From assembly GCA_934182615.1 (NCBI GenBank), contig CAKPRO010000006.1, positions 4,771 to 68,770 of the forward strand: a stretch of DNA of 64,000 bases, in the 5' to 3' direction. The stretch is from an uncultured Bacilli bacterium. Lineage in GTDB: Bacteria > Bacillota_I > Bacilli_A > RF39 > UBA660. Shown here in pieces: positions 2,771 to 59,753 of the stretch; within the stretch, counting starts at the first letter, position 1; each line of letters begins with the position of its first letter. Made by a program: the position numbers and the translations under genes. The notes below the pieces were generated by a model. That model saw only the letters and a program-made list of their open reading frames with translations. It had not been told where the DNA came from and did no database searches.

Positions 2771-2784
2771 GATTTCCTCCTTTT

Positions 2785-2843
2785 CCACTTCAGTCTGTAG
2801 TCTTCCGTGGTATGATAGAGCCTCTATAATAGTCTCTATCATA
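2785..2843 (-). repeat. Twin-hairpin intergenic repeat, copy 2
   Basis: Minus strand reads UAUGAUAGAGACU-auuauag-AGGCUCUAUCAUACC-ACGGAAGACU-aca-GACUGAAGUGG. It begins 5 nt after the upstream stop (2849) and is followed by AAAAGGAGG and the ATG at 2770. Confidence 0.8.
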
Positions 2844-2848
2844 ATATT

Positions 2849-8325: not shown

Positions 8326-8356
8326 CCTTTTCTTGTTACATTTATTTTTTTATATG

Positions 8357-8413
8357 CCACTTCAGCCTATGGTCTTCCGTGGTATGATGAAGCCTACTTT
8401 AATCTTCATCATA
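8357..8413 (-). repeat. Twin-hairpin intergenic repeat, copy 4
   Basis: Minus strand reads UAUGAUGAAGAUU-aaagu-AGGCUUCAUCAUACC-ACGGAAGACC-aua-GGCUGAAGUGG. It overlaps the last codons and stop of the 8362-9270 ORF. Confidence 0.8.
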
Positions 8414-9270
8414 ACATTTTTTAGTTTATCTAATAATTCTTCTAATATATTATTATCTACTATCTTAGTAATAGCAAAACACTTTTTACCTAAATCTTTA
8501 AATGAAGCACCAGAATGATATAACACTTTATTATCTATTATAACAAACCTATCATGAAATATATTAGTATTTATTATTTCTATATTACTATATTGTTTTT
8601 CATACTTATCTTTAGAAATATTATCTATATTTTCTGTATATATTTTTACTTTAACATTAATATTTCTAATAATATCAAATAATTTTTTACCAGCATAATT
8701 ATCTATTATAATTATTTCTTTCTTTGCTTTAGATAATATATCTATAAGTAATGAATATGCATCATATATCTGTCCTTCATAAAAAATATGATTATTACTT
8801 TCTTTTGAAGTTAATTTATCTAGTATTAAATTAATTTTACTATCGTGTTCTAATACTAATTTGTTAATATATTTTTGTTCTATCAGTGAAGTATTTATTA
8901 TCTTTTTCATTACTACGAATGCATCCATTATTGCAATTGTTATCTTCGTTGCTTCTTTACTTTTTAAGATTGTAGCAAGCATATATACACCTTGCTCGGT
9001 AAAAACTCTGGGATTTTTATACTTACCTCCATGTTTTTCTATTTTTTGGTCGAAAATTTCGACCAAAAGATTATCACTTTCGTTATCGGAAAGTTTAAAG
9101 CAATATCTTTCGGGAAACTTTTCTATATTATTTTTAACTGCTTCATTTATTCTTTTTGTTTCTACATTATAGAGTTTAGCCAAATCAGAATCTAACATTA
9201 CTTTTTTACCTCTAATTTCATATATCATATTTTCTATCTTTATATTATTGCTTACCATTATATTGTTCAT
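8362..9270 (-). CDS. ORF6N (KilA-N-like) domain protein
   Basis: N-terminus IENMIYEIRGKKVMLDSDLAKLYNVETKRINEAVKNNIEKFPERYCFKL is typical of the ORF6N domain. Likely start is MNNIMVSNN at 9270. The C-terminal ~17 aa are encoded by the repeat element. Confidence 0.7.
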   Translation of the reverse strand: MNNIMVSNNIKIENMIYEIRGKKVMLDSDLAKLYNVETKRINEAVKNNIEKFPERYCFKLSDNESDNLLVEIFDQKIEKHGGKYKNPRVFTEQGVYMLATILKSKEATKITIAIMDAFVVMKKIINTSLIEQKYINKLVLEHDSKINLILDKLTSKESNNHIFYEGQIYDAYSLLIDILSKAKKEIIIIDNYAGKKLFDIIRNINVKVKIYTENIDNISKDKYEKQYSNIEIINTNIFHDRFVIIDNKVLYHSGASFKDLGKKCFAITKIVDNNILEELLDKLKNVMMKIKVGFIIPRKTIG

Positions 9271-9370
9271 TATATCATCCTTTCTTTGATCTCTAAAAAG
9301 ATATATCTCTTTTATCATTGTCTTATCGTTTATGATAATATAAATACATAATGATGTCAATATAAAAATA

Positions 9371-10372: not shown

Positions 10373-10385
10373 TATACCTCCTTTT

Positions 10386-10442
10386 CCACTTCAGCCAGTA
10401 GTCTTCCGTGGTATGATAAAGCCTATTCTAGTCTCTATCATA
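10386..10442 (-). repeat. Twin-hairpin intergenic repeat, copy 5
   Basis: Minus strand reads UAUGAUAGAGACU-agaau-AGGCUUUAUCAUACC-ACGGAAGACU-acu-GGCUGAAGUGG. The upstream stop TGA (10438-10440) lies inside the conserved UAUGA. It is followed by AAAAGGAGG and the ATG at 10372. Confidence 0.85.
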
Positions 10443-10932
10443 AAATCTTATTTATTATTTTTATACTTATCTTTTTATCATTAACATAATAATGAATATC
10501 ATTATCATTAATATTCTTCAAATATATACTTCTTCCTATTGGACTATTTAAAGATACCTCTTTAATTTTAACATTATTATCTATCATATATTTACCAGTT
10601 AATTTAATAGTATATTCTTCGATATCATCTATATCATATATAACTTTTATTTTAAGAATATCTCCTACATCTATTATATCATCAAAATTACTTTTTTTAT
10701 CTACTATTTTTAAATATTTTTCATCCTCTAACATTTTATTTATTCTTGAAGCAATCTTTCTACTTTCCCTCATTGTATCTTCAAAAGCAAAATTATCATG
10801 CCATCCATCTCCTACTGCATCAGCATAGGATTCACTTCCTATGCTGGCAATAGATAAACTTATATCTTTTAATCTATTTAATTCTTCATAATACTGATTA
10901 AATCCATCAGTATCTACTAATACATCTTTCAT
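10438..10932 (-). CDS. GreA/GreB-family-like protein
   Basis: The C-terminal segment EVSLNSPIGRSIYLKNINDND resembles the GreA C-terminal domain (IS..SPLG.ALLGK). The N-terminal DGWHDNFAFEDTMRE is coiled-coil-like. Confidence 0.5.
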   Translation of the reverse strand: MKDVLVDTDGFNQYYEELNRLKDISLSIASIGSESYADAVGDGWHDNFAFEDTMRESRKIASRINKMLEDEKYLKIVDKKSNFDDIIDVGDILKIKVIYDIDDIEEYTIKLTGKYMIDNNVKIKEVSLNSPIGRSIYLKNINDNDIHYYVNDKKISIKIINKIL

Positions 10933-13639: not shown

Positions 13640-14887
13640 TTAATTTTTACTTAATAGTTTTTCTAATGGTTTAAACTCAGTAGATTCTTCTAATTTTTCT
13701 TCATAATATTTACCATCTTGGTAGAAGCCTCTCAAAGCATATGCTTCTTTAATATTATGAGCCTTTACTTCACTAGTAATTATTCTATATTCATTATCTA
13801 CTATCTCAATACAAGAACAATTACTTAACATTATACCTACTTTATCTTTATTTTTTAATTCTTCTTTAGTAGATTCATATCTTCCATTTTCATCAGTATG
13901 AGGGGTAATGTAAGCATCAATAAAATTTAGACAATCTACACTACTAAAAGTTACATCATTATCACTAGTTACCGAGTCTGAATTACAAGAATTAAACCAG
14001 CACACTGCTCCAGCAGATACTCCACATAATACTTTACCATCATTATATGCATCAAGTAATAATTTATCAAATCCTGTTTTCTTCCATAAATTAATCATCT
14101 CTAAAGTATCACCGCCACCTTCATAAATAATATCAGCCCATGCTATTTTTTCCTTTACTACTTCCATATCATCTAGTTCAGTACTTTTTAAATTTCTACA
14201 CCTACAGCCAAACATATCACCATATATTTTTTTCATCGTTTCAAAATAACCCTCTTCGATAGCATTATTAAATGGTTGTGCATGAACCACAAATAAATAA
14301 TTAGGGTTTTCTTTACCTGTTAATCTTATTATTTCCTTATCCATAGGTTCAGTTTCATATTCACGATATTTACCATTACCTAAATATCTACCATTTTCTT
14401 TCCAAACATCAGTTAATTGTTTTCTATTTTGAATAGCTTTCATTCTCTTTGCTATCCAGTTTTCATCATAGCCTTTTGACCTATATAAATCTATAGATCT
14501 TTGCATAGCAATTGATGGATCAAATACCTCATCAATTCTCTCACTACCTAACTTAGCTAACCATTGCTTTATAGGCTCAGCATTCTTACTAGGAATAGAT
14601 TCTATTATTCTAAACATTCCTTCAATATCAGTAACATCCGTCATACGATATTTACCATCAGTAGCCTTAAGTTTCAACTGTCCGATTTTTTCGGACACTT
14701 CACTTCCTTCCGAAGTTAATTGTTTCTTTAAGTCACTCCAGTATTTTCTGGGTCTAGCACTTCCAGTTAATACTTCAATAATATCAATAATACTAACATA
14801 ATATTTCTCACTTTCTTTATTCCAAACAGTTCTAACTTTCTTATCATTAAATATTTTGTTAATCAAATATAATTTGTCTTTTTCCAT
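13640..14887 (-). CDS. Fusion protein: Bro-N/DinD-like N-terminal domain plus peptidase S51 C-terminal domain
   Basis: N-terminus KKVRTVWNKESEKYYVSIIDIIEVLTGSARPRKYWSDLKKQL...AEPIKQWLAKLGSERIDE is DinD/Bro-N-like. C-terminus has GGGDTLEM, GVSAGAVCW and ITPHTD (S51 motifs). Likely start is MEKDKLY at 14887. Confidence 0.7.
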   Translation of the reverse strand: MEKDKLYLINKIFNDKKVRTVWNKESEKYYVSIIDIIEVLTGSARPRKYWSDLKKQLTSEGSEVSEKIGQLKLKATDGKYRMTDVTDIEGMFRIIESIPSKNAEPIKQWLAKLGSERIDEVFDPSIAMQRSIDLYRSKGYDENWIAKRMKAIQNRKQLTDVWKENGRYLGNGKYREYETEPMDKEIIRLTGKENPNYLFVVHAQPFNNAIEEGYFETMKKIYGDMFGCRCRNLKSTELDDMEVVKEKIAWADIIYEGGGDTLEMINLWKKTGFDKLLLDAYNDGKVLCGVSAGAVCWFNSCNSDSVTSDNDVTFSSVDCLNFIDAYITPHTDENGRYESTKEELKNKDKVGIMLSNCSCIEIVDNEYRIITSEVKAHNIKEAYALRGFYQDGKYYEEKLEESTEFKPLEKLLSKN

Positions 14888-14995
14888 ATAACCCTCCTCT
14901 TTTCTTACATTCCCAATATAACACATATAAAATATCTAAGTCAATGAATTTTAATACATTTCTTGGTAATATTTTTACCAAAAAGAAAAAGTACT

Positions 14996-16002: not shown

Positions 16003-16059
16003 TTTTCTTTAACCTCTTCAACCTGTAGTCTTCCGAGGTATGATGAAGCCTATTCTAGT
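16003..16059 (-). repeat. Twin-hairpin intergenic repeat, copy 6
   Basis: Minus strand reads UAUGAGGAAGACU-agaau-AGGCUUCAUCAUACC-UCGGAAGACU-aca-GGUUGAAGAGG. It ends 4 nt before the ATG region of the 15998 gene. Confidence 0.8.
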
Positions 16060-16148
16060 CTTCCTCATAATATTTTTTTGGTTAATGTCAATATATCATA
16101 TAAAATAGCCAAAGGCAATAATATATTGTTTTTTAAAGAAAATAAGTA

Positions 16149-17951
16149 CTATTTCAAGTACTTATCAATTATTTCAAATAATTTATCTTTGCTAATAGGT
16201 TTAAGTAAATAGCCACTAAAACCATATTTTAAATATTCTTCATTATATTCATATTCATTATTTCTAGTAAGTAAGATAACATTAGTTTTAAAGTTTCTAA
16301 TATCTTTAAATTTCTTCATAACAGTTACTCCATCTAATGGATCCATAACTTCATCTAGTAATATTAAATCATATTTCTCTTTACCTCTAATTTTATCTAG
16401 TGCTTCTTTACCTAAACTAACATAATCAAGTTTAATATTAGTATCACGAATTAACTTACTAATAATCTTCTCAGTAGAAATATTATCATCTACTAAAAGT
16501 ATTTTCTTTTCATCATAAAAACTTTCGTACTTATTATATTTTTCATTAGCTTCTTCTACTATCTTTTGATCAAGTACTATCTTCATAGTAGTACCATTAC
16601 CATAATTACTACTAGGAATAATAGTACCACCCATTAAAGTAATTAGTTTTCTAGCAGTAAATAAATTACTCTTCATATTACTTCCATCTATTTCTTCTTT
16701 TCTTTTATAGAAGATACTATCCATCTCATCAGGAGATATTCCTACTCCCGAATCTTCAATAGTAATAATAAGTCTTGCTATATTATTCTTAATAATCGTA
16801 TTAACATTAAGTTCAATATAACCTTCTTTAGTATACTTAATACTATTATCTAAAATACTAGTTAAAACATTTTTAAGTCCTAAATTATCTCCATATAAAT
16901 ATTCAGGTAAATCACTAGCAATATCACTTCTAAAAGTAAGACCTTTCTTACTACATTCATCACTATATAAAGTAACTATCTTTTTTAATAATAATTTAAT
17001 ATTATATTTATCATCATATACTTTAATACTAGCACTATCAATACTATCTACATCAAGTATCTCATTAGTCATCGTAGTAAATCTAGCAGTATTTTCTTTA
17101 ATAGCCCTCAAATAATCATTAACTAAATCTTTATCTACTTTCTTATTACTCATTTCATTAATCGCAGCATCAGTATTATAATTAATATCCTTAGTAATAA
17201 GTCTAATATCATTAGTCATATTATATAAAAACATAGTCTTATCTTCATTAGCATTATCACTAATCTCTTTAGCCTTATGATATTCTTCAATCATCTTAAC
17301 ATCAGGATTCTCTATTGTAAAATACATAAGGAAAGTAATAAAAGCATGAATAGGAGTAGCAAGTAATAATCCCGGATTCATATATTGAATATAAGATGCA
17401 ATACCACCAACAATTAAAAATATAAGTATTGGAAAAAATCTCTTATCTTTAATATTTTTAATATTTCTAATTAATGCAATAATACCTATAAAAGAATATA
17501 AGAAAGCTGAAAGATATATAATATTAACACTAGGGCCATAAGTATAAGCAATATATCCATCATATTTAAAGTTAAGTGGTAAGATAAAATTCAAAGTAGT
17601 AAAGATAATCATTAATACAATAGCTATATTTCTAACTACTGGTATATATCTTTCTTTCTTTTTAATACTAAGACATACAAATAGTACGTAGCAGAGTAAT
17701 ATAGTAATCCAAAGTTCTACTCCAAAAGAAAATAATCTTGCTACAAAATAACTAACATTAGGTATTTCTTTATACATAGGTCCAACAAAATCCAAAATAA
17801 GTTCTATAATAAGTTCAAAGAATGATACTACTACTAATATAGAATATACTTTATTTTCTTTACTTTTAAATACTTTCTTTCTAAAGTATACAGTCATAAG
17901 TAACATAGAATATACTATTGCTTCAATTAAAAAATAAATACCAGTATACAT
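16149..17951 (-). CDS. Membrane histidine-kinase-like / receiver hybrid protein lacking the canonical H-box histidine
   Basis: Multi-TM N-terminus. The H-box position reads FLYNMTNDIRLITK (canonical FLANMSHEIRTP). The HATPase N box is NSIKYT and the G1 box is EDSGVGI. The C-terminal receiver has LLVDDN, LILLDE and LLKP. Confidence 0.75.
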   Translation of the reverse strand: MYTGIYFLIEAIVYSMLLMTVYFRKKVFKSKENKVYSILVVVSFFELIIELILDFVGPMYKEIPNVSYFVARLFSFGVELWITILLCYVLFVCLSIKKKERYIPVVRNIAIVLMIIFTTLNFILPLNFKYDGYIAYTYGPSVNIIYLSAFLYSFIGIIALIRNIKNIKDKRFFPILIFLIVGGIASYIQYMNPGLLLATPIHAFITFLMYFTIENPDVKMIEEYHKAKEISDNANEDKTMFLYNMTNDIRLITKDINYNTDAAINEMSNKKVDKDLVNDYLRAIKENTARFTTMTNEILDVDSIDSASIKVYDDKYNIKLLLKKIVTLYSDECSKKGLTFRSDIASDLPEYLYGDNLGLKNVLTSILDNSIKYTKEGYIELNVNTIIKNNIARLIITIEDSGVGISPDEMDSIFYKRKEEIDGSNMKSNLFTARKLITLMGGTIIPSSNYGNGTTMKIVLDQKIVEEANEKYNKYESFYDEKKILLVDDNISTEKIISKLIRDTNIKLDYVSLGKEALDKIRGKEKYDLILLDEVMDPLDGVTVMKKFKDIRNFKTNVILLTRNNEYEYNEEYLKYGFSGYLLKPISKDKLFEIIDKYLK

Positions 17952-17981
17952 ATAAACAACTCCTATCTATTATCTATATTA

Positions 17982-18010
17982 AGTATACAATTTTTTTACT
18001 TTTTTTACAA
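17982..18010 (-). promoter_or_regulatory. Sigma-A type promoter (duplicated sequence, copy A)
   Basis: Minus strand has TTGTAA, a 17 nt spacer, then TATACT. It is nearly identical to 18796-18824. Confidence 0.45.
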
Positions 18011-18113
18011 GAAAAAAAAGACAATTTTCATAAATTATCCTTTTAAGTTTTATACTAACTATTGCAATTGATAACTATAGTTTATTTTTTTACAATTTAC
18101 AGTTCATAATTTC

Positions 18114-18752
18114 TTAAAATTTTCTTGTTTTAACATTTTCTCCAACCAACATTCTTTGATCATATTTTCTCATTTCATTTTCTGTTGTATAGCCAACATA
18201 TGCATATGTTCCATTAAGTTTACTTGGATTAAAGCCATATATAGTCATTCTCGAATGACCTTCAATTATTAAGAATTTTTCATTGTTACAAGTAATTAAA
18301 ATAATAGGTGGAAATTTATTTGCTTTGTTATACTCAAAACCATCAAAAAATGGTTGATTAGATACATTATATATTTCTCTTCCACTATTTATGACTTTTG
18401 CAGCTTCTACTGGTTTAGATGTTCCATTAGATAATTCATTCCAATAGTCATAATCAATATAATAGATATTATCAATATCTTTTTCATCTAATTCTAAATA
18501 TTTCCATTCGCTAATTTTGGGAAAATTTTCAAATAATCCATTATCTGGATAACCTCTAAATTTTTTCATAATGTTTAATCTATCAAGATTTTCTTTTTTA
18601 TTTTTAATATTTCCATTAAAAATTATACTTGAATCTAATCCTAAATCATTAATAATATTATCTAAACTCCCATTAAATCTTTTTGAATTTAATTCTCCTT
18701 TTAAAAATTCAAGAATCATTTCATCCTCATTTGCTTTTCTTATTAGTTTCAT
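18114..18752 (-). CDS. Hypothetical protein
   Basis: Long ORF with no motif I can assign. Likely start is MKLIRKANE. Confidence 0.5.
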   Translation of the reverse strand: MKLIRKANEDEMILEFLKGELNSKRFNGSLDNIINDLGLDSSIIFNGNIKNKKENLDRLNIMKKFRGYPDNGLFENFPKISEWKYLELDEKDIDNIYYIDYDYWNELSNGTSKPVEAAKVINSGREIYNVSNQPFFDGFEYNKANKFPPIILITCNNEKFLIIEGHSRMTIYGFNPSKLNGTYAYVGYTTENEMRKYDQRMLVGENVKTRKF

Positions 18753-18795
18753 TATAGTCACCAACTTTCATAATTAATCGTTTCCATCTATTTCA

Positions 18796-18824
18796 AGTAT
18801 ACAATTTTTTCATTTTTTTCACAA
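18796..18824 (-). promoter_or_regulatory. Sigma-A type promoter (duplicated sequence, copy B)
   Basis: Minus strand has TTGTGA, a 17 nt spacer, then TATACT. Confidence 0.45.
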
Positions 18825-18842
18825 TAGAAAAAGAAGAAAAAA

Positions 18843-20600
18843 CTATTTAAGTTCTCTCTTCTTAGTTTTATGTTCAGCTTCTTCTTTAGCAAGTTCTTCT
18901 AATAATTTATAATCAGCTTTATCAGCTTTAGTTCTAGGAATAGTATCTAAGAATGTAATAGATTCTGGTACTTCATATGGTTTTAATTGAATAGTCTCTC
19001 CTGTAATATTATTAATAATTGGTTTATAACACATATCTAGTATATAATCACTTATTTCTTTCGTAGGCATAACACCATCTTTTAATACTACATATGCCTT
19101 ATTAGTAAATAATAAATCTTTATCAGGTTTAGGAACTACTACTACACTATCTACTACATCAATTAAAGCTATAACATTTTGAATATGTTCTAAATATACT
19201 TTATTTAAGTCTGATCTAATATAATATCTACTACTTCTTCCAGTTAAAGTAAAGTATCCTTCATTATCTAAAGTACCCATATTACCAGTCTTATAATACT
19301 CTACTCCTTTATACATAAATTTAGTATTTTTAGTCATTTCTTCATTCTTATAATATCCTTTATAAATATGTTTACCTGCTATACAAAGCATTCCTTCTTC
19401 GCCATATTTAAGTTCTTCTAAAGTATCAGGATCAACAATAATAGCCTTAGTACCAACAAGCACTCTACCTACTGTTTCAGGTCTATTGAGTGAGCCAACT
19501 GCCATTGTATTAGTACCAACTGTTTCAGCATTACCAGAACCATTACATATAACAGTATTAGCTCCATGTTTTCTAAAAAATTCTACTCCATCAACATTTT
19601 GCATTGGTGATAAGAAATCCCCTCCTGATACAAAGGTATGAATACTAGATAAATCATCACTATCTTTAACATTTCTTTTAATAAGTTCAAGAAGAGCAGG
19701 ACTACCAAATACATAGTTAGGATTTTTACTTAGATAATATCTAATATTATCTTTACTTAAAGTAGGAGCAAGTACCGCTACTCTACCACATATTAAACTC
19801 ATAATAGTAGAAGTAGCAAAACCATAAGGATAAGAAAATGGTACACATACTAAACATCTTTCTCCTACTTTTGCTTTAATCTTACCAGTATTTTTCATAT
19901 AAATACCAGAAGCAAGTAAATTCTCATTAGTTAATACTACACTCTTAGGATTACCAGTAGAACCACTAGTAAATAAAATTAAAGAGTCTTCCTTACCACC
20001 ATATAAAGTATATATAGGTTTTTTATAATATTTAGCAATACTACCAATATCACTAAAAGATAAATCATCATTATATCCATTAGCACCTGTTTCTATACTA
20101 CTATAATTCTTAGTACTAATTTCATTACTATGTAAAGTAATAATATTTCTTACCTTACTACCATCTTTAATCTTTTTATTATATTCTTTATCTTTATCAA
20201 AATTAATAAATAAACTAGATTCAAATTCATTCAAATATCCTAATACTTCTTCAATTGAAGACATTGAATTAATAAAAGTAGTAATAGCCCCTATTCTGTT
20301 GCAGGCTAAATAAATAATAACTCCTTGATAATAATTAGGCATAGCAGCAGATACTATACTTCCCTTCTTTATTCCTAATTCTTTCAATGTCTTAGATAAA
20401 GTAATTGCATCTTTTAACATTTCATCATAATTTACTTTTAAATCTAAACAATCAATAGCTTCTTCTTTTCTATAGAAATTACTAATTAAATTAATAGTAT
20501 TATAAATACTCATATTAGGTATTATAGGATTTCTACTAAAAAAACTATAATCACTATTATGTATATTATCTATAGATGGATAACCTGTTAATTTTTTCAT
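18843..20600 (-). CDS. AMP-binding (adenylate-forming) enzyme, acyl-CoA synthetase-like
   Basis: 585 aa with the AMP-binding motif FTSGSTGNPKSVVLTNENL and a later GNMGTLDNEGYFTLTGR segment. Confidence 0.85.
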   Translation of the reverse strand: MKKLTGYPSIDNIHNSDYSFFSRNPIIPNMSIYNTINLISNFYRKEEAIDCLDLKVNYDEMLKDAITLSKTLKELGIKKGSIVSAAMPNYYQGVIIYLACNRIGAITTFINSMSSIEEVLGYLNEFESSLFINFDKDKEYNKKIKDGSKVRNIITLHSNEISTKNYSSIETGANGYNDDLSFSDIGSIAKYYKKPIYTLYGGKEDSLILFTSGSTGNPKSVVLTNENLLASGIYMKNTGKIKAKVGERCLVCVPFSYPYGFATSTIMSLICGRVAVLAPTLSKDNIRYYLSKNPNYVFGSPALLELIKRNVKDSDDLSSIHTFVSGGDFLSPMQNVDGVEFFRKHGANTVICNGSGNAETVGTNTMAVGSLNRPETVGRVLVGTKAIIVDPDTLEELKYGEEGMLCIAGKHIYKGYYKNEEMTKNTKFMYKGVEYYKTGNMGTLDNEGYFTLTGRSSRYYIRSDLNKVYLEHIQNVIALIDVVDSVVVVPKPDKDLLFTNKAYVVLKDGVMPTKEISDYILDMCYKPIINNITGETIQLKPYEVPESITFLDTIPRTKADKADYKLLEELAKEEAEHKTKKRELK

Positions 20601-20659: not shown

Positions 20660-20685
20660 ACATTTATATATATTTTAGTATATTT

Positions 20686-20739
20686 CCCCTTCAGCCTGTA
20701 GTCTTCCGGGGTATGAGCAAGCCTAAAGTCTTGCTCATA
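20686..20739 (-). repeat. Twin-hairpin intergenic repeat, copy 7
   Basis: Minus strand reads UAUGAGCAAGACU-uu-AGGCUUGCUCAUACC-CCGGAAGACU-aca-GGCUGAAGGGG. Confidence 0.8.
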
Positions 20740-20776
20740 TATTTTAGCATATTAAAAGTGAATCATTAAAATTCAC

Positions 20777-51604: not shown

Positions 51605-51658
51605 AAAAACCTCCCAATAAATATAAAGACACTCAAAAAAGAGTGCCTACTTTATTAA

Positions 51659-51928
51659 TTATTTTCTTAATCCTAATTTTGCAACTACATCTCTGTATCT
51701 CTTAACATCAGTCTTAACAAGATAGTTTAATAAACTTCTTCTTTTACCAACTTTAATTAAAAGTCCTCTCTTAGAAGCTTTATCTTGTTTATTATTCTTA
51801 AGATGTTCAGTTAAAGCATTAATCTCATTGGTAAGAATAGCTATTTGTACTTCAGGAGATCCTGTATCTTTACTATCTCTAGCAAACTCTTTAATGATTT
51901 GTGCTTTCTTATCTTTATTTAAAGCCAT
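51659..51928 (-). CDS. rpsO: 30S ribosomal protein S15
   Basis: [46 protein letters not shown]. Confidence 0.95.
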
Positions 51929-52057
51929 TATATTTTCCTCCTTATCTTATTTTCACCTTTAACCTAGTTATGGTAAGAGGTACCAATAACAAAGTTCAAG
52001 GAACATATTAATAATACACTATATTTTACGATTTGTAAATAGTTTTTATGAATTTTC

Positions 52058-53836
52058 TCATCTTTCCAAGTATTTATTAATCTTATTAATAAAAATATCT
52101 TCATCAATAGGTTCTGATATAACATCACTAAAACCATATTTATCATAACTATCAATATACTCATTATTACTACTAAGTAATATAACCTTAGTATTAAAAG
52201 ACTTAATCATTAATAGCTTCTTCATAATAATTATCCCACTAAGTGGCTTAATATTATCTTCAATTAATATTAAATCATATTTCTTTTTACCCCTAATCTT
52301 ATCTAAAGCCTCTTTACCAAGTTCTATTATTTCTAAATTAATATTCTTATCTTTAACAATATCTTTAATTATCTTACTATTTAAATTACCAATTAATAAT
52401 ACATCTTTCTTATCAATTACCTTTTCATATTCATTTAACTTATTATCACTAACTACCAATCTCTGATCTAATATAATCTTCATCTTAGTACCAATTCCAT
52501 ATATACTACTAGGAACAATAGTACCATTCATTAAAGTAATAATCTTCTTAACATTATATAAAGTATCATTTAAATCATAATTCTCTTCTTTATAATCCTT
52601 CTCATTAACAAATAAACTACCTAACTTATCACTTTCAATACCAATACCAGAATCCTCTACAGTTATAATAAGTCTAACTATATCATTCTTAATAATAGTA
52701 TTAACATCTAACTCTATATAACCATTATTAGTATACTTAACACTATTATCTAACAAAATATCAATAACTTTCTTCAAATTAATACCATCACCATATAAAA
52801 ATTCTGGCATATCACTATTAATATTACTTCTAAAAACAATATTCTTATCATTACATCTCTTCTTATAAGTATTAATCAAACTCTTAAGTATCAACTTAAT
52901 ATTATATTTTTCATCATACACTCTAATACTAGCCCCATCCATATTAGAAACATCTAATATTTCATTAGTTATAGTAGTAAACTTAGCAGTACTACCCTTT
53001 ATCTCTCTAGCAGAATCTTCAATAACTTCTACATTAACTTTCTTATTATCAGTCTCATCCAAGATATTATCAGCTTCTTTATTAATATCTTTAGTAATAC
53101 CCCTTATCTCATTAGTCATATTATATAAGAATAAAGTCTTCTCTTCATTAGCATTATCACTAATTTCCTTAGCCCTATGTATCTCTTCAATTGTCTTCAT
53201 ATCAGGATTCTCTATTGTAAAATACATAACAACAGTAACTAATACTTCTAAAGGACTAACTAAAAATAATTCTGGATATTTTATCTGAAGAAGCAAAGCA
53301 ACTCCTCCAAATAAAAGGAATATAAACATAGGTATATACTTCTTATTACCAAGTTTTTTAATATTAATAACTGAATTAATAACAATTACTAAAATAGCAA
53401 TTATAGCAATTAAATAAGTAAAATTAACTGCTAAACCACTAGTATACATAATATTATTTTTATAATAATAATTAATTGGTAATATTGATATCAAAAATGC
53501 AATCAAAACATATACTACCCAAAATATTTTATATAATTTTTTAGACTTAAAATCTGAAGATATTGAAATAACATATAACATAAAGAATAATATCCAACTA
53601 TCTAAAGATATTAAATATAATACATTAATTATTCTTGTAATATAAGCCATACTATCTATATTAATAATAAATATATAACTAACCATTCCTAATAATAACT
53701 CTACAAATGTAGATATAAGAAGTAAACTATATATCTTATTTTCTTTAGATTTAATTCTTTTTCTCTTAAAATATATAATAATTATAAGTAATATATAAAC
53801 CATCCCTGAAAATGTTAAACCTAAATTAAAATTCAT
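52058..53836 (-). CDS. Membrane histidine-kinase-like / degenerate receiver hybrid (paralog of 16149-17951)
   Basis: The H-box position reads FLYNMTNEIRGITK (His replaced by Asn). HATPase motifs NSVKYT and EDSGIGI. The receiver is degenerate (LLIGNLN, LILIED, ISEP). Confidence 0.75.
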   Translation of the reverse strand: MNFNLGLTFSGMVYILLIIIIYFKRKRIKSKENKIYSLLLISTFVELLLGMVSYIFIINIDSMAYITRIINVLYLISLDSWILFFMLYVISISSDFKSKKLYKIFWVVYVLIAFLISILPINYYYKNNIMYTSGLAVNFTYLIAIIAILVIVINSVINIKKLGNKKYIPMFIFLLFGGVALLLQIKYPELFLVSPLEVLVTVVMYFTIENPDMKTIEEIHRAKEISDNANEEKTLFLYNMTNEIRGITKDINKEADNILDETDNKKVNVEVIEDSAREIKGSTAKFTTITNEILDVSNMDGASIRVYDEKYNIKLILKSLINTYKKRCNDKNIVFRSNINSDMPEFLYGDGINLKKVIDILLDNSVKYTNNGYIELDVNTIIKNDIVRLIITVEDSGIGIESDKLGSLFVNEKDYKEENYDLNDTLYNVKKIITLMNGTIVPSSIYGIGTKMKIILDQRLVVSDNKLNEYEKVIDKKDVLLIGNLNSKIIKDIVKDKNINLEIIELGKEALDKIRGKKKYDLILIEDNIKPLSGIIIMKKLLMIKSFNTKVILLSSNNEYIDSYDKYGFSDVISEPIDEDIFINKINKYLER

Positions 53837-53851
53837 ACTACTACCACCTTT

Positions 53852-55708
53852 TTATTTCTTTATCAATTTTTTACCCTTACTAGGCATAACTATATCATAA
53901 TAACCAAGTCCCATATTAGTCTCATGACAAACAATACTAATCTCACTTCCATCAATACCATCTTCTTTTATCTTCTTATAGTCTTTCTTTAAAGCCGTTG
54001 TATATGGTAACTCGTCCACTACTTTCCATTTAGCAGGTATATCACGAAACGACATATTATTATTACTTAAAATATAATTATCAATAATACTCTTTATAAT
54101 ATCTTTTATATCAATACCTTTACTCTCTTTAGATAAAACAACATATATAAGAGGCATAGCACCAAAGTTATTTTCATCATAATATTCAGATATCATAACA
54201 TCTTCTACATAAGAAGAACTAGTAACAGCATTTTCTAAAGCATTAGGATATATCTTATAACCATCATATCTAGATATCATACCACTTGCTCTTCCTTCAA
54301 AAAAGTATTCCCCTCTAGCATTTTTTTTCATTATATCTCCAGTATCAATATACTCTCTTCCATCAATATTAATTGTTTTATGTAATACTTCTCCATCAAA
54401 TTCGCATACTGGATTACTACCCTTACTATAATATAAATGACCAAGTTCTCCACGACTCAATTCTTTCATAGTGTCAGGATCAATAATAATACCATTTCCA
54501 CCAGGTAAATCAATTCCACAACTACCAGGAGTAGACATAAAAGGATCTTCTAGTATACAAGTACCATTAAATTCACTCATACCATAACCAGTTCTAAGTA
54601 AACACTTAGCATTATGTGATATTAAAAATCTATTAATATTAGCTAGTTGCATAATAGTAAGTGTACCACCGCCATATACCGCTTCTTCAAGAAAAGATAA
54701 ATCAGCATTATTATATTTATCACTACCTATAAGTCTAAGCCAAAAAGAAGGTGTACCAAATAAACAATTAGCCTTAGTCTTAAGTAAAATATCAATAATA
54801 TTTTCCTGTGAAAATATTGGTATTTCTATCATTTCTAATCCTAAACTATGACCCAAATGCATCGAATCAGAAAAACCAAACTGAGCAAAACCAGGAAGTA
54901 CATGTAAAAATGTTTTAACTCTACTATAATCTATATTTGATATTTGATGTTGAAAAGCAATAAAATTAACATTTTCATTAGTTGAAGGAATAGTCTTAGG
55001 TACTCCTGTTGTACCAGAAGAATGGCATATTGTAGCTACTTCATTTTCTACATATGGGTTAGTATAACATACTTGATATCTTGAATCCTTAAGAAATCTA
55101 TCTACTCCAAATATATTAATATTACCATACGAAGTACTTACTCTCTTAACAATATCTTCATCCCTAAATTTCATTCTATACATAACACTTTCAATCATAG
55201 GTAAAGAATCAGTAATCTTAGTAATTAATACTTTATCAATATTTAATTCATTATAAATATAATCCTCAATAGGTTTAATTGAAGTTTCATATACCTTATC
55301 AAAGCATACAATAGCATTTACTTTTTCTTTCTCTAAAAAATATTTCATTCTATCTTCCTTACTAGTAGGATCAATATTATCTGAAATAGCCCCAATCTTA
55401 TTTAAAGCATATATAATAATAGTAGACTCTGGTAAATTAGGAAGTAAAAGTGCTACTCTATCACCTTTTCTAATCCCCATAGCGGCAAATCCCTTAGCAT
55501 ACCTATCTATTAAATCAATAAATTCCCCATAAGTATACCTTTTTCTTCCAAATCTAAGTGCATATCTATCTAAATTATTCTTATTACACTCCCTAATATA
55601 TCCATACATAGTATATTTAGGAATATTATTAAGAATAATATCAAAACTATCACTAGGATTATTCTGTATTTCCCTTTTTAATTCTTCTATTCTTTTTAGT
55701 AATTCCAT
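53852..55708 (-). CDS. AMP-binding (adenylate-forming) enzyme, acyl-CoA synthetase-like
   Basis: 618 aa. AMP-binding motif HSSGTTGVPKTIPSTNENV. It ends 15 nt before the kinase-like gene. Confidence 0.85.
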   Translation of the reverse strand: MELLKRIEELKREIQNNPSDSFDIILNNIPKYTMYGYIRECNKNNLDRYALRFGRKRYTYGEFIDLIDRYAKGFAAMGIRKGDRVALLLPNLPESTIIIYALNKIGAISDNIDPTSKEDRMKYFLEKEKVNAIVCFDKVYETSIKPIEDYIYNELNIDKVLITKITDSLPMIESVMYRMKFRDEDIVKRVSTSYGNINIFGVDRFLKDSRYQVCYTNPYVENEVATICHSSGTTGVPKTIPSTNENVNFIAFQHQISNIDYSRVKTFLHVLPGFAQFGFSDSMHLGHSLGLEMIEIPIFSQENIIDILLKTKANCLFGTPSFWLRLIGSDKYNNADLSFLEEAVYGGGTLTIMQLANINRFLISHNAKCLLRTGYGMSEFNGTCILEDPFMSTPGSCGIDLPGGNGIIIDPDTMKELSRGELGHLYYSKGSNPVCEFDGEVLHKTINIDGREYIDTGDIMKKNARGEYFFEGRASGMISRYDGYKIYPNALENAVTSSSYVEDVMISEYYDENNFGAMPLIYVVLSKESKGIDIKDIIKSIIDNYILSNNNMSFRDIPAKWKVVDELPYTTALKKDYKKIKEDGIDGSEISIVCHETNMGLGYYDIVMPSKGKKLIKK

Positions 55709-55770
55709 CTAAACCACCCTTTACAAAATTTCCCCTCTAAAACACTAATATTATACCATAATCAAAAGCT

Positions 55771-55802
55771 AAAAAAAATGTACCATTTGTGTACATTTTT
55801 TC
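55771..55802 (-). terminator. Intrinsic terminator
   Basis: Minus strand has AAAAAAUGUAC-acaaaug-GUACAUUUUUUUU. Confidence 0.65.
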
Positions 55803-55841
55803 AGTTCGTAAAATGACATAAGTTTACTATAAGTTAACCAT

Positions 55842-57014
55842 TTATTTGCCCTTTCCACTTGCAATATCTGGTAAATATAAAGAAAACTTTTTATTAATTA
55901 CTTTCATAACATTACTATCATATTTCATAGGTAATACTACTTCATAATAATATTCTCTAAGTATATCATCTGAAACATTATATCTAGAAATAACTTCATC
56001 TAAACTATCTAAATTAATAAGAAATTTATTATATTCTTCTTCATTATATGGAGGAATATTATTTTTTTGTCTATATAACCCCTTATTAATACATTTAAAT
56101 CTTATTCCCATTCGTTTAAGACTAATATACTCTCCTAGTAACATATCACATCCATTACTAAGAAGTAAAGCTCCTACAGCTCTTGTTTTAGTTCTATCTA
56201 ATACTACTTCATTAGTTTGACTATTATATCTATATAACTCTCCACTATCTTTTAATTCCCTTTGAATACTTAATTCTTCTATCATTTTAGGACTACTAAT
56301 TGAAGTAACAGAACTTTCCATATCATTAGTATAACCAACCTTAATATAATGTTTATTTCCATTAACATCAATTTCTTTTAAAGTATTAAAATCAGCCTCA
56401 GTAGTTTCTCTAGTAACAGAATCAACAAAAGAAGAAGCAATATAACTATCACCATTAACATCCATAACAAATAATGCTTTAACATCTCTAAAAGTATTAA
56501 GTTCTCTACCTGATATTAAAGAGCAAGATAAGTATTGTTTACTATACTCATTATCATGATAATTTAATTCTCCCTTTACACCAGGTTCTAAATAACTAGC
56601 ATGAATTACTGTCATAAAGTCTTCTCCATTAGTAATATTATCATAATTAGTAATATCTCTTTCCCATAACTTAACAGAATAGTCTCTGCATTTCTCTTCT
56701 AAATCAAATATCTCTTTTAAATCCTTTTCAAATTCTAATCCTACTAGTGAAGCATCATCTTTATATTTACCATACTTAAAACAATACTCTACATTATCAC
56801 TACTAGTTAAATCATTTAGTATTCTATTATAAATACCATATAAATCAGAATATTTACTTTTAAATTCTTTTAATTTCCTATAAGTATCTATATAAATATC
56901 ATTGTTAACTTCCATATCAATAAGCATAGCAAGTTTTTTCTCTAACTCTGTAATATAACCTCTTACACTAGAATTAATTAAAGCGTAATCAGTAATATAA
57001 CTAAATTTTCTCAT
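55842..57014 (-). CDS. Hypothetical protein
   Basis: 390 aa ORF with no motif. Confidence 0.5.
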   Translation of the reverse strand: MRKFSYITDYALINSSVRGYITELEKKLAMLIDMEVNNDIYIDTYRKLKEFKSKYSDLYGIYNRILNDLTSSDNVEYCFKYGKYKDDASLVGLEFEKDLKEIFDLEEKCRDYSVKLWERDITNYDNITNGEDFMTVIHASYLEPGVKGELNYHDNEYSKQYLSCSLISGRELNTFRDVKALFVMDVNGDSYIASSFVDSVTRETTEADFNTLKEIDVNGNKHYIKVGYTNDMESSVTSISSPKMIEELSIQRELKDSGELYRYNSQTNEVVLDRTKTRAVGALLLSNGCDMLLGEYISLKRMGIRFKCINKGLYRQKNNIPPYNEEEYNKFLINLDSLDEVISRYNVSDDILREYYYEVVLPMKYDSNVMKVINKKFSLYLPDIASGKGK

Positions 57015-57230
57015 AACACACTCCTATCTAAATAAACATATCATTATTTTAACTCTTCAATTTATCAGTATTTCTGACAAGTTAAAATTCTATCAAATTT
57101 TCCATCATTCAAATTATAATAACATATTCAATTAACCATCTCTTTCAGTTGTTGCATTTTTTACAATAACTGAAATTAATTTCTTTACTCAGTGGTTATC
57201 CCAAAATTTGCATATACCACCAAAAGCTTT

Positions 57231-57285
57231 ATTTCAAAGACTTAATGGCTTTGAAATACCCTACAAGACCTTAGACTTGTAGGGC
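57231..57285 (+). repeat. Twin-hairpin repeat, inverted-orientation variant (copy 9)
   Basis: Plus strand reads AUUUCAAAGACU-uaa-UGGCUUUGAAAUACC-CUACAAGACC-uu-AGACUUGUAGGG. It ends 9 nt from the ruvB stop. Confidence 0.6.
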
Positions 57286-57293
57286 ATAATATA

Positions 57294-58283
57294 TTAATCT
57301 TTCTTAATACCTAAATATTCATAAGTCTTATCAGTAACAACTCTACCTCTAGCAGTTCTCTTTAAATAACCCTGTTGTAATAAATAAGGTTCATATACAT
57401 CTTCAATAGTAGAAGCTTCTTCTCCAATTGAAGAAGCAAGAGCCTCAAGTCCTACTGGTCCCCCATTAAATCTTTCTACAATAGCTAAAAGTAAATTATA
57501 ATCAGTATCATCAAGTCCAGTCTTATCTACTTTTAATCTATCCAAAGAATTATCAAGAATCTCTTTATTAATAATACCATCACCATATACCAAAGCAAAA
57601 TCCCTAACTCTCTTAAATAACCTATTAGCAATTCTCGGAGTACCCCTACTTCTCTTAGCTAGTTCTCTAGCAGCATCATCAGTAATAGGAGTATCAAGTA
57701 CCCTAGAAGTTCTCTTAATAATCTGATATAATTCATCCTCAGTATAAAAATTAAGTTTAGAAATAATACCAAATCTATCTCTTAAAGGACTAGATAAATC
57801 ACCTGCTCTAGTAGTAGCTCCTACTAAAGTAAAATGTGGTAAATTAATCTTAATATTTCTTGAAGAACCCTCACTACCTACTATTATATCTAAGTAAAAA
57901 TCCTCCATCGCTGGATATAAAATCTCTTCAATATATCTAGGAATTCTATGAATCTCATCAATAAATAGAACATCCCCTTCTTCTAAAGTAGATAGTATTG
58001 CAGCTAAGTCCCCACTCTTCTCAATCGAAGGCCCACTAGCAGTCTTAATATTAGTACCAAGTTCATTAGCAATAATATAAGCAAGAGTAGTCTTACCAAG
58101 CCCAGGAGGACCATATAATAAAATATGATCTAAAGTCTCTCCTCTCATAACTGAAGACTTAATAAATACCCCTAAATTCTCTTTAATCTCACTTTGACCA
58201 ACATACTCATTTAAAGATACTGGTCTAATAGTCATATCCTTATCCTCTTTAAATTCTTCACTACTCATTATTCTATCATTCAT
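57294..58283 (-). CDS. ruvB: Holliday junction helicase RuvB
   Basis: Motifs [16 protein letters not shown] and the sensor/arginine regions. 329 aa. Confidence 0.97.
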
Positions 58284-58838
58284 CTATTCCCCCTCCTTGT
58301 ATATAGTATTATATAAATCTTTAGTCCCCTTTTCTTCCATATCTAATTCAATTTTAGGTAAATCATCCTTACTACCAAGCCCAAAATAATCCAAAAACTC
58401 ATCAGTAGTCTTATATAAAGTAGGTCTACCAATAGTATCAGCCTTACCACACTCTTTAATAAGCCCTTTAGCCAGTAACCTTCTCATAACATAAGCCGAA
58501 TCTACTCCTCTTAAAGAATCAACATTACCCCTAGTAATAGGTTCATTGTAGGCAATAATAGCAAGTGTCTCTAAAGCCGACTGTGACAAACTATTCGAAG
58601 TAGGCTCTTCAAGTAACTTCTGATAATATTCCTTATGTTCTTCTCTAGTCGTAAGTTTAATCGTATTACCTAAAAAATTAATTCTAAGACCCCTCTTATT
58701 ATCATCATAATAATTCTTTAAACTAAGAACAATCCTCTTAGCCTCTTCCTCATCAATTTCTAATATTCTCTCAATATCATTCAAAGTAATACCCATATCA
58801 CCTTGAACATATAAAAGTCCTTCTACTACACTTTCCAT
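58284..58838 (-). CDS. scpB: Segregation and condensation protein B
   Basis: VEGLLYVQGDMGITL..SQSALETLAIIAYNEPITRGNVDSLRGV. Confidence 0.9.
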   Translation of the reverse strand: MESVVEGLLYVQGDMGITLNDIERILEIDEEEAKRIVLSLKNYYDDNKRGLRINFLGNTIKLTTREEHKEYYQKLLEEPTSNSLSQSALETLAIIAYNEPITRGNVDSLRGVDSAYVMRRLLAKGLIKECGKADTIGRPTLYKTTDEFLDYFGLGSKDDLPKIELDMEEKGTKDLYNTIYKEGE

Positions 58839-58839
58839 C

Positions 58840-59556
58840 TTAATTCCTCAATTCTATTAATATCTTATCAAAATTCTTATCTTGATTAATAACAACATCT
58901 TTCTCTTTAACCATTTCTAATATTGATAAAAAAGTAACAACCACTATCGGTCTATTATACTCTTCAAATAAATCATCTAAATAAGCCTTCTTCTTAGTTA
59001 TAAGAATCTTCTTAATATTATTCTTTCTCTCCCTAACCGAATACTCTCTTTTAGTAACAGTAGTTTCTAAAGGTTTATCAAGTTCTTTTCTCTCTAAAAA
59101 CTTCTTAAAAGCCTCAAGTAAATTATCAATCGTATCTTCGCCACTAAGAGTACTCTCAGTATAATTACTAACCTTCTCCGGAGCCTTAATATATATCTTC
59201 TTTCTTTCTTCCTCTAACTCTTTAAATACCGGTGTCATCTCTTTATATTTCTTATATTCAAGTAATTTATTAATAAGATTCTCTCTCGTAATCTCTTCAT
59301 CTTCTTCACTATTATCTTCTTCTTTCTTATTACTAGGAAGTAATAGTTTAGACTTCAAATACATAAGTTCCGCCGCCATAACTAAATACGAAGAAGAAAT
59401 ATTAATATTAAGATTCTCTTCATGATTAATATAATCCAAATATTTATCCGTAATCTCTTCTACTTTAATATCAAAAATATCTATATTAGACTCTTTTACT
59501 AAATGTAAAAGTAAATCTAAAGGTCCTTCAAAATTATCTATTGATATATAATCCAT
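58840..59556 (-). CDS. scpA: Segregation and condensation protein A
   Basis: NFEGPLDLLLHLVKESNIDIFDIKVEEITDKYL. Confidence 0.9.
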   Translation of the reverse strand: MDYISIDNFEGPLDLLLHLVKESNIDIFDIKVEEITDKYLDYINHEENLNINISSSYLVMAAELMYLKSKLLLPSNKKEEDNSEEDEEITRENLINKLLEYKKYKEMTPVFKELEEERKKIYIKAPEKVSNYTESTLSGEDTIDNLLEAFKKFLERKELDKPLETTVTKREYSVRERKNNIKKILITKKKAYLDDLFEEYNRPIVVVTFLSILEMVKEKDVVINQDKNFDKILIELRN

Positions 59557-59753
59557 ATATCCACCATCCTACCTAATTATATCATGTATTTAACCATTAG
59601 TAAATAAAGAATTACTCCCAAAACTATTGCTTTTATATAAAATATATAGTATCATATATAATGCAGTAAATGATACACTGCCGTATTTGTAACCAAATAA
59701 GTTACATATTTTATCAAAAAGAAGTAGTATAATAATCTTACAGGAGGAAAATT

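Follow-up and report, generated by a model that had tools for sequence, protein, structure and literature searches.

A conserved pairing of adenylate-forming enzymes with seven-helix pseudo-histidine kinases in uncultured gut Bacilli

Introduction

Two loci within a 64,000-nucleotide stretch of DNA from an uncultured Bacilli bacterium (GenBank assembly GCA_934182615.1, contig CAKPRO010000006.1, positions 4,771 to 68,770 of the forward strand; the whole stretch is called the window) each encode an adenylate-forming enzyme of the ANL superfamily and a membrane protein that resembles a hybrid histidine kinase. In public annotation the membrane protein carries the name 'hybrid sensor histidine kinase/response regulator', which is that of an ordinary hybrid kinase. 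A first-pass annotation of the window, made from the sequence alone, had pointed out that the phospho-acceptor histidine is missing and had suggested a functional couple of enzyme and receptor rather than a classical two-component system. Here we describe a computational analysis of the two loci and of the protein family to which the receptors belong, and consider how the enzyme and the receptor could work together.

The two loci

The coordinates and reading frames given to the four genes in the first pass are correct, and all four genes lie on the minus strand. In the first locus AMP1 (18843..20600) encodes an adenylate-forming enzyme of 585 amino acids that matches the Pfam families AMP-binding (1.6e-51) and AMP-binding_C, and HK1 (16149..17951) encodes a pseudo hybrid histidine kinase of 600 amino acids. 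HK1 consists of a sensor domain of seven transmembrane (TM) helices (residues 1-213; 17313..17951), delimited by hydropathy, the positive-inside rule and AlphaFold2 (AF2) modelling, followed by a dimerisation and phosphotransfer (DHp) domain, a degenerate ATP-binding (CA) domain (16542..17021) and an intact-looking receiver (REC; 16152..16514). A motif at the end of the seventh helix, FTIENPD (17301..17321; translation checked), forms the boundary of recombination between the sensor cassette and the signalling core. In the second locus AMP2 (53852..55708; 618 amino acids; Pfam AMP-binding 7.3e-50) is followed by HK2 (52058..53836), a second seven-helix pseudo hybrid kinase, of 592 amino acids. 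In both membrane proteins Pfam identifies HATPase_c, which in HK1 only is accompanied by Response_reg, and for neither protein does a HisKA match reach threshold. The NCBIfam hybrid-kinase models TorS, ArcB, BarA and LuxQ align with both proteins from about residue 220 to the end at scores far below their cut-offs.

The loci had been described as a duplicated module, but they do not represent a recent duplication, as AMP1 and AMP2 are 27% identical and HK1 and HK2 are 47% identical overall. The similarity between the two receptors is unevenly distributed, with 31% identity for the TM region and 51-64% for the cytoplasmic domains, of which DHp is the most conserved (64%). The gap of 15 nucleotides (nt) reported between the AMP2 stop and the HK2 start is confirmed and holds a ribosome-binding site, AAAGGTGG, for HK2. 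The gene preceding AMP2 ends in a hairpin and T-run at about 55771-55801, after which comes an extended -10-like element, TGGTATAAT (55750..55758, minus strand), read directly from the sequence. Because this terminator-like structure and the -10-like element both lie upstream of AMP2, the arrangement suggests that AMP2 and HK2 form a single two-gene transcription unit.

In the first locus the enzyme and receptor genes are not adjacent, as had been supposed, and are separated by an open reading frame (ORF) of 216 amino acids (18114..18764, minus strand) with no assigned function. This ORF is a lineage-specific insertion: it is absent from all 80 of the related loci examined, where the spacer between enzyme and receptor is about 75 nt, and it has no match in Pfam, NCBIfam, PHROGs or PADLOC. 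It is contained in an insertion of approximately 814 bp bounded by a 47-nt direct repeat (85% identical), with copies at 17972-18018 and 18786-18832. The repeat is the ancestral spacer between enzyme and receptor genes and carries a promoter-like element, TTGTAA/TTGTGA-17-TATACT, recognised by consensus match only. One copy (17972..18018, minus strand; TTGTAA-17-TATACT) is upstream of HK1 and the other is upstream of the inserted ORF, and the spacers of two related loci, L001 and L004 (relatives of the window loci are given L numbers), hold the same element as the copy upstream of HK1. PADLOC and PHROGs returned nothing for the enzyme/receptor module or for the neighbouring unassigned ORFs.

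The enzymes retain the motifs of the ANL superfamily. AMP2 carries A3, A5, A7 (TGD), A8 and A10, while AMP1 carries the P-loop lysine of A3, the glutamate of A5, the arginine of A8 and the lysine of A10, with TGN in place of the family TGD at A7. The catalytic residues are close to invariant among the family loci (A3 Lys and A5 Glu in 57 of 57, A8 Arg and A10 Lys in 56 of 57). A substitution of the ribose-binding aspartate of A7 by asparagine or threonine (AMP1 residues about 437-440) recurs in a clade of AMP1-like enzymes found in L001, L004, L020, L021, L028, L037, L051 and L072, and the enzymes of this clade pair with receptors both with and without the phospho-acceptor histidine (termed canonical and His-less below). 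For neither AMP1 nor AMP2 do the NCBIfam scores support a specific assignment as an equivalog of fatty-acid--CoA ligase, Aas, DltA or MenE; against the Aas model PRK08633, for example, AMP1 gives 1.5e-37 and 129 bits, with a cut-off of 1221.

Loss of kinase motifs in HK1 and HK2

The replacement of the phospho-acceptor histidine by asparagine, as first noted, is present in both copies, at Asn247 of HK1 (codon 17211..17213, minus strand; H box FLYNMT-N-DIR) and Asn242 of HK2 (codon 53111-53113). In a phmmer comparison with kinases of the PDB, the HK1 segment 'ktmFLyNMtNdIR' pairs with 'kseFLaNMSHEIR' of GacS (7z8n), and likewise with 7p8e. The ATP-binding N box and G1 box are retained, again in agreement with the first pass, with the N-box asparagine and the G1 DxGxG in both copies (Asn369 and D400/G402/G404 in HK1). 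The F/G2 (GxGxG) motif of the ATP lid, on which the first-pass annotation did not remark, is also gone from both copies. HK1 reads '...SNMKSNLFTARKLI...' where canonical relatives have 'EGTGLGLAITK', and in the AF2 model of HK1 residues 419-427, the expected position of the lid, are of low confidence or disordered. The two receivers differ in the way that had been described, with that of HK1 intact (D488, D489, D533, T562 and K584 all present; Pfam Response_reg 1e-19) and that of HK2 degenerate (GN, E, S and E at the signature positions, and no Pfam receiver match).

The fold itself has been kept. The AF2 model of the whole of HK1 has a mean predicted local distance difference test score (pLDDT) of 85.8 and comprises a helical hairpin at residues 218-298 and an alpha/beta CA domain. 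A Foldseek search with this model matched ShkA, YycG, HK853, RetS, the CA domain of ETR1 and DivL, and the E values of 1e-11 to 1e-14 against HK853, YycG and ShkA indicate that the architecture of a DHp four-helix bundle and a Bergerat fold is present. RcsD was found as a weak NCBIfam match, and no histidine phosphotransfer (HPt) domain was detected by Pfam in either membrane protein. A functional HisKA-type kinase has the H-box histidine and a complete CA domain with N, G1, F and G2 motifs, and HK1 and HK2 have neither. They are pseudo-histidine kinases, a functional class rather than a homology family, defined by a fold that is kept, catalytic residues that are lost and selection that is maintained.

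A large His-less clade

To place these losses within the family we required a diverse set of relatives. A first homolog search with HK1 returned only sequences of 99-100% identity, with no diversity, and a representative library was used instead. HMMER was run without a profile against 1.84 billion cluster representatives and the 150 best matches were kept, nearly all of which are about 600 amino acids long and align over their full length, including the TM region. The residue at the histidine position was then counted in a MAFFT alignment of 141 full-length cluster representatives (clusters at 50% identity) that share the seven-helix sensor. Histidine occupies this column in 54, glutamine in 54 and asparagine in 14, and the rest have Asp, Glu, Lys, Ser, Thr, Ala or Tyr, so that the histidine is absent from 87 of the 141, with frames intact at about 600 amino acids.

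The loss of the lid follows the loss of the histidine closely, as G2 (GxGxG) is missing in 86 of the 87 His-less members and present in 47 of the 54 that contain the histidine. The His-less members keep the N-box asparagine (76/87), the G1 aspartate (84/87) and the two G1 glycines (78/87 and 83/87). Their receivers decay variably, with the aspartate kept in 56 of 87, and conservation of the TM domain is no lower in the His-less group (29%) than in the canonical group (25%). The canonical relatives are complete phosphorelay kinases with 7TM, HisKA, HATPase_c, REC (sometimes two) and HPt. Judged by their sequences, at least 87 of the 141 closest full-length clusters cannot function as kinases. 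A crude neighbour-joining tree fits one or a few losses of the histidine; multiple independent losses were also considered, and the tree does not decide. Seven members (P0159, P0195, P0210, P0238, P0241, P0256 and P0266) keep the H-box histidine with a degenerate G2, and P0216 has glutamine at the histidine position in an otherwise canonical protein. These eight may be intermediate stages of kinase decay.

It is very unlikely that HK1 and HK2 are active kinases that use a non-canonical acceptor, for example His225 or a serine or threonine. The N and G1 boxes are kept, both HK1 and HK2 have His225, and a non-canonical acceptor is used by some plant ethylene receptors, but His225 is shared by just 16 of the 87 His-less relatives, it lies 22 residues upstream near the membrane, and the ATP lid is missing from almost all of them. 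The first-pass annotation had named a shifted histidine as the observation that would speak against its reading, and in 84 of the 87 there is none within 8 residues of the H-box position.

The seven-helix sensor

The sensor has seven TM helices in an N-out/C-in topology with outer loops of 4-15 residues and one small beta-hairpin that bears a conserved YxYGPSxN motif; hydropathy, the positive-inside rule and two AF2 models agree on the topology. The TM-only AF2 model of HK1 has a pLDDT of 90.2 and a predicted template modelling score (pTM) of 0.86. The FTIENPD motif, where the seventh helix exits the membrane, is invariant or nearly so in both of the alignments inspected (A2 and A4). No Pfam model, including those of known seven-helix sensor modules such as 7TMR-DISM, matches residues 1-320 at E values up to 1. 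With the TM-only model Foldseek found generic seven-helix bundles alone, namely AdipoR1 at E 8e-4 and G protein-coupled receptors at TM-scores of 0.5-0.65; with the whole model the search was dominated by the kinase core, and we do not claim homology of the TM domain to any seven-helix bundle in the PDB. Since outer loops of merely 4-15 residues leave little exposed, the ligand is most likely sensed within the membrane.

A conserved gene neighbourhood

Synteny was scanned with one genome per species, which gave at least 588 relatives, and the best 80 loci were examined. All 80 come from metagenome-assembled genomes (MAGs) of uncultured gut 'Bacilli/Tenericutes/Mollicutes', several of which have two or three copies. 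One of them, 'Firmicutes bacterium CAG:321' (MNTB01), is nearly the species of the window, its locus L012 being 96.7% identical in DNA to window positions 51618-60006. Failure of the gene pairing to extend beyond this genome was the other observation named in advance as adverse to a functional couple. We find that the pairing does extend: of 80 family genes with enough upstream DNA, 61 have an ANL gene as their immediate upstream neighbour on the same strand, down to approximately 30% protein identity. The 61 comprise 33 of the 37 His-less genes and 28 of the 43 canonical genes, mostly with a gap of 14-100 nt. The enzyme-receptor pairing is ancestral, and bona fide hybrid kinases with the same seven-helix sensor have it as well.

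Where the ANL gene is missing or displaced, other enzymes are found. The remaining 4 of the 37 His-less loci have a PlsC-type acyltransferase (PF01553) in its place, and PlsC-type genes occur at this position in 13 of the 80 loci. In several canonical loci the ANL gene is separated from the receptor gene by one for an acyltransferase; this acyltransferase frequently has an HAD/NT5C-like domain at its N terminus, and the domain is also found on some ANL proteins. In three canonical loci (L047 6940-7929, L059 6939-7916 and L069 6805-7806) a conserved protein of about 325 amino acids without a Pfam match replaces the ANL or acyltransferase gene, and this may be a third kind of partner enzyme.

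Downstream of the receptor the two groups differ. Directly downstream genes for HPt-REC (about 258 amino acids) or HPt (118 amino acids) account for 32 ORFs in canonical loci, compared with none in 38 His-less loci. The terminus of the canonical relay (L036 8045-8821, L063 2580-2936 and 30 similar ORFs) is either an HPt fused to a bare receiver without an output domain or a stand-alone HPt. Because the terminal relay element is a bare receiver, the ancestral pathway seems, from its gene content, to signal by protein contact rather than through an operon-encoded DNA-binding regulator. No HPt or response-regulator gene was seen near the His-less loci, and neither an export function nor an RpfF-type synthase was seen among the conserved neighbours. 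Canonical and His-less copies occurred together in 0 of 72 sampled assemblies, a count drawn from the best 80 among at least 588 matches.

These observations bear on the possibility that the His-less receptors act as phospho-sinks or modulators, in which the receiver aspartate would be phosphorylated in trans, or DHp would bind other kinases in the manner of RetS and GacS, so as to tune a relay encoded elsewhere. We think this rather unlikely. The HK1 receiver does have all five signature residues and the aspartate persists in a majority of His-less relatives, DHp is the cytoplasmic part most conserved between HK1 and HK2, and RetS and DivL are among the structural matches. However, HK2 and many relatives lack the acidic pocket, the aspartate and the lysine and are nevertheless under purifying selection, there is no conservation of the phosphatase residue (Thr/Asn) at H+4, and no HPt or response-regulator gene lies nearby. 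The absence of any sampled assembly holding both forms leads us to down-weight a RetS-like decoy in particular.

The strength of selection was estimated as dN/dS by the method of Nei and Gojobori. HK2 gives 0.23 in comparison with L012, where its ortholog is 97% identical, and with L013, and HK1 gives 0.07 in comparison with L001. No domain reaches 0.7, not even the degenerate DHp, CA and REC, and the enzymes have values of 0.12-0.18. Because dN/dS is 0.07-0.23, HK1 and HK2 are maintained proteins and not relics. That they are decaying remnants which happen to lie beside an unrelated housekeeping ligase is hardly tenable: catalytic residues have indeed been lost in three domains, but at least 87 clusters at 50% identity have intact frames of about 600 amino acids, selection is purifying and the adjacency recurs for 61 of 80 family genes. 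The earlier suggestion that enzyme and receptor form a functional couple, and not a classical two-component system, is supported by the conserved pairing, the lack of an HPt/REC partner, the lost ATP lid and the purifying selection, whereas the suggestion of a role in sporulation found no support in our data.

Enzyme and sensor half are exchanged together

How the enzyme relates to the receptor can be examined in pairs of loci that share a signalling core. HK1 and its counterpart in L003 are 99% identical in DHp, 96% in CA and 100% in REC, but 32% in the TM domain, and the neighbouring enzyme of L003 is 27% identical to AMP1. In DNA a 97%-identical tract begins at window position 17342, 30 nt upstream of the ENPD codons, and the downstream flank is 92-94% identical, while nothing matches upstream of the junction. 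The same split between core and cassette is found in L016 and L020 (from one MAG), in two tandem copies in L079, in L019 and L026, and in L008 and L011. Across the five pairs the cores are 97-100% identical, the TM domains 30-34% and the enzymes 19-33%, with breakpoints 18-33 nt upstream of the ENPD codons. Between L008 and L011 both flanks are about 96% identical and the enzyme and TM domain alone have been replaced. Conversely, L021 carries the AMP1/TM1 cassette on a canonical kinase core (enzyme 62%, TM 53% and core 33% identical).

The same relationship can be seen statistically. In a partial Mantel test with 59 pairs the enzyme correlates with the TM domain given the core (r=0.59, reached by 0 of 999 permutations) and does not correlate with the core given the TM domain (r=0.03), so it is the TM sensor half, and not the kinase half, that the enzyme matches. 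A mirror-tree comparison using whole receptors was weak (Pearson 0.29, Spearman 0.04), and the signal appears only after the TM domain and core are separated. The pattern is of the agr/com type, in which a partner gene and the TM half of the sensor vary and the kinase half is conserved. In L016/L020 (MAG CAKOQC01) and in L079 (4730-5950 and 8646-9867) the paralogous cores within one genome are 98-99.6% identical in DNA while their sensor cassettes are unrelated, which points to a signalling core that undergoes gene conversion or concerted evolution.

Such variation invites comparison with pherotypes. The ANL enzyme, in some loci with a PlsC-type acyltransferase, could be a signal synthase that makes a diffusible lipid-like signal, with the cognate seven-helix protein as its receptor and the cassettes as specificity alleles. 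The variable region is a biosynthetic-type gene plus the TM half of a receptor whose kinase half is conserved beyond a sharp boundary, alleles have been swapped between conserved flanks (L008/L011, and the window against L003, with flanks 92-97% identical), and there are several divergent pairs per genome with the gene order enzyme then receptor. The architecture of variation is that of agr (PMC6834553). On the other hand, RpfB, the ANL enzyme in the DSF (diffusible signal factor) system, consumes the signal, there is no export function nearby, the receptor of the window lineage is unable to relay by phosphorylation, and the variation between cassettes may equally reflect differing nutrient or host acids. 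In addition, to our knowledge no ANL enzyme is established as an autoinducer synthase. We consider this explanation possible, though improbable.

Comparison with known systems

Pseudo-histidine kinases and enzyme-sensor gene pairs are each already known, and literature searches found no description of this seven-helix family, its large His-less clade, the pairing with ANL enzymes or the exchange of cassettes. In logic the nearest characterised analogue is the Rpf/DSF system of Xanthomonas, which also combines a multi-TM receptor of the hybrid kinase type with an ANL enzyme. RpfC is a multi-TM hybrid kinase that senses a fatty acid via a short sensor and its TM region, and RpfB, encoded in the same cluster, is an ANL fatty acyl-CoA ligase that acts on the same fatty acid (10.1101/2022.01.03.474871; PMC9040794). 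However, RpfC has five TM helices, a functional histidine, a receiver and an HPt and signals to RpfG, whereas the window proteins lack the histidine and G2. In sequence the two systems have nothing in common but the generic folds of kinases and ANL enzymes, and no synthase of the RpfF type turned up in the conserved neighbourhood of the window family.

In the agr (AgrB/AgrD/AgrC) and com (ComC/ComD) systems of Gram-positive cocci the hypervariable segment comprises the signal gene or genes and the TM half of the sensor, while the cytoplasmic kinase half is conserved. In agr the hypervariable region spans agrB to agrC (PMC6834553). The window family has the same pattern of variation, with the break at FTIENPD, but agr and com signal with ribosomal peptides through kinases of the HPK10 type, and their response regulators are separate, where the window family has an ANL partner and a catalytically dead core. 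Canonical relatives share the layout enzyme, 7TM-HK-REC, HPt(-REC) with the LuxM/LuxN and CqsA/CqsS systems of Vibrio, in which the gene for the synthase of an acyl-derived signal adjoins that of a multi-TM hybrid kinase with a fused receiver that relays via HPt. There the enzyme families (LuxM type, and pyridoxal phosphate-dependent CqsA) and the TM domains are different, and the window copies have lost the relay.

The receptors are also comparable to established pseudo-histidine kinases. DivL, RetS, RcsD and the subfamily-2 ethylene receptors (ETR2/ERS2/EIN4) keep the kinase fold, have lost catalytic residues and produce their output by protein-protein contact. For ethylene receptors the ligand is likewise hydrophobic and is perceived within a TM bundle, and both canonical and degenerate forms occur. 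DivL, RetS and the CA domain of ETR1 are structural matches to HK1, but none of these proteins is orthologous or known to be paired with an ANL enzyme, and in the window family the change of histidine to glutamine or asparagine and the loss of G2 extend across a clade whose members were not found in the same genome as canonical forms in the 72 assemblies sampled. Finally, in the re-acylation of lysophospholipid by Aas/LplT of E. coli an ANL acyl-activating domain works with a PlsC-type acyltransferase, and the lipid substrate is handled by a polytopic membrane protein. The weak match of AMP1 to PRK08633 and the PlsC-type genes at family loci recall this system, although LplT is a flippase of the major facilitator superfamily and not a seven-helix kinase-type receptor.

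Proposed mechanism

We propose that the window proteins are ligand-gated pseudokinases, each matched with its ANL enzyme to one ligand, a carboxylic acid that is soluble in the membrane, and that their lineage has given up the phosphorelay; we would put the probability of this at about one half. The soluble ANL enzyme would activate a carboxylic acid as its acyl-adenylate, and the seven-helix bundle would recognise the same compound or the acyl product of the enzyme. From the neighbouring genes and the membrane-buried sensor we infer that the substrate may be a fatty-acid-like acid that partitions into the membrane, and the PlsC acyltransferases and HAD/NT5C domains fused or adjacent to family genes provide a link to lipids. 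The gene for the enzyme and the sensor half of the receptor would form one specificity cassette, the two being inherited and exchanged as a unit.

The ancestral form persists in other lineages, and in it binding of the ligand would gate a His-Asp-His-Asp relay from HisKA/CA through REC to HPt(-REC). In the window lineage this relay would have been given up: the phospho-acceptor histidine, the ATP lid and the HPt partner gene have been lost and the receiver of copy 2 is in decay, while the DHp dimerisation scaffold, the adenine-nucleotide pocket (N box and G1) and the sensor remain under purifying selection. The output would be conformational and pass through protein-protein contact, and the most economical target would be the adjacent enzyme, by its recruitment to the membrane or by feedback control of acyl activation.

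Several points weigh against this proposal. The covariation between enzyme and TM domain could arise from physical linkage alone, since the enzyme gene borders on that end of the receptor gene which encodes the TM domain and the FTIENPD junction is the sole conserved site of recombination; conserved adjacency is a more robust sign of functional coupling. The adenylation activity of AMP1 is not certain from its sequence, given TGN in AMP1, and TGN or TGT across its clade, in place of the ribose-binding TGD. The best PDB relatives of the enzymes are generic family members (E about 1e-26) with no close characterised relative among them, and the best NCBIfam scores are far below curated cut-offs (190 bits against 476 for AMP1 with PRK06187, and 153 against 705 for AMP2). 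The intact receiver of HK1, together with the retained aspartate of many His-less relatives, could in principle be phosphorylated in trans. No conserved downstream partner gene was found in the His-less loci, all the relatives come from metagenome-assembled genomes, and the separation of canonical and His-less forms is drawn from the limited sample of loci given above.

A more specific version of the proposal goes further, and we offer it only tentatively, as something we would not expect to hold in full. The cassettes would be specificity alleles of a lipid-based signalling system in uncultured gut Bacilli, in which the ANL enzyme makes or consumes the ligand and no phosphotransfer takes place, and the lid-less Bergerat domain would perhaps read the adenine-nucleotide or acyl-adenylate state of the enzyme.

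Other features of the window

A conserved RNA-like motif of about 60 nt with two hairpins, UUAUGAUnAAGACUAnAAUAGGCUUnAUCAUA-CCnCGGAAGACUACAGGCUGAAGnGG, occurs five times in the window (2775-2845, 8347-8417, 10376-10446, 16003-16073 and 20676-20743), always on the minus strand. It is placed in 5' leaders, as a rule with 0-20 nt between it and the start codon, and shows compensatory changes in both stems, with a P2 pair that is A-U in 52 cases, U-A in 10 and C-G in 6 and with several fully complementary variants of P1. The motif has no match in Rfam 15, occurs at least 120 times in human-gut metagenome contigs, and precedes mostly genes for GNAT/hexapeptide acetyltransferases, HAD hydrolases and an ABC exporter, together with a few ANL enzymes including AMP1. 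It is a candidate riboswitch or protein-binding leader. We considered whether it belongs to the enzyme/receptor module and rejected this, as it is found at only 3 of the 80 loci and mostly precedes acetyltransferase genes.

The ORF at 13640-14926 (minus strand; 428 amino acids) joins a BRO-N/phrog_15286-like N-terminal part to a peptidase S51 domain. Its N-terminal 180 residues recur in L136, a metagenomic relative whose C-terminus is different, so a deletion may have produced this ORF by fusion. A further ORF, at 8362-9360, encodes an ORF6N anti-repressor-like protein.

Significance

Public annotation gives these proteins the name of an ordinary hybrid kinase; at least 87 of the 141 closest full-length clusters cannot be kinases. 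The family is abundant, with at least 588 copies in species-representative genomes and several per genome, and the exact window protein is present on hundreds of human-gut contigs. Its hosts are small-genome uncultured gut Bacilli with a largely uncharacterised physiology, and the pairing gives a testable handle on how they perceive or handle fatty-acid-like compounds from the host, the diet or their neighbours. The occurrence of canonical and degenerate versions on the same sensor/enzyme cassette, as in L021 and the window, provides a natural experiment in the conversion of a phosphorelay receptor into one that is independent of phosphorylation. If the cassettes are specificity alleles that work without phosphotransfer and the lid-less domain reads the state of the enzyme, these proteins would constitute a class of kinase-derived receptor that acts as the allosteric partner of an adenylating enzyme.

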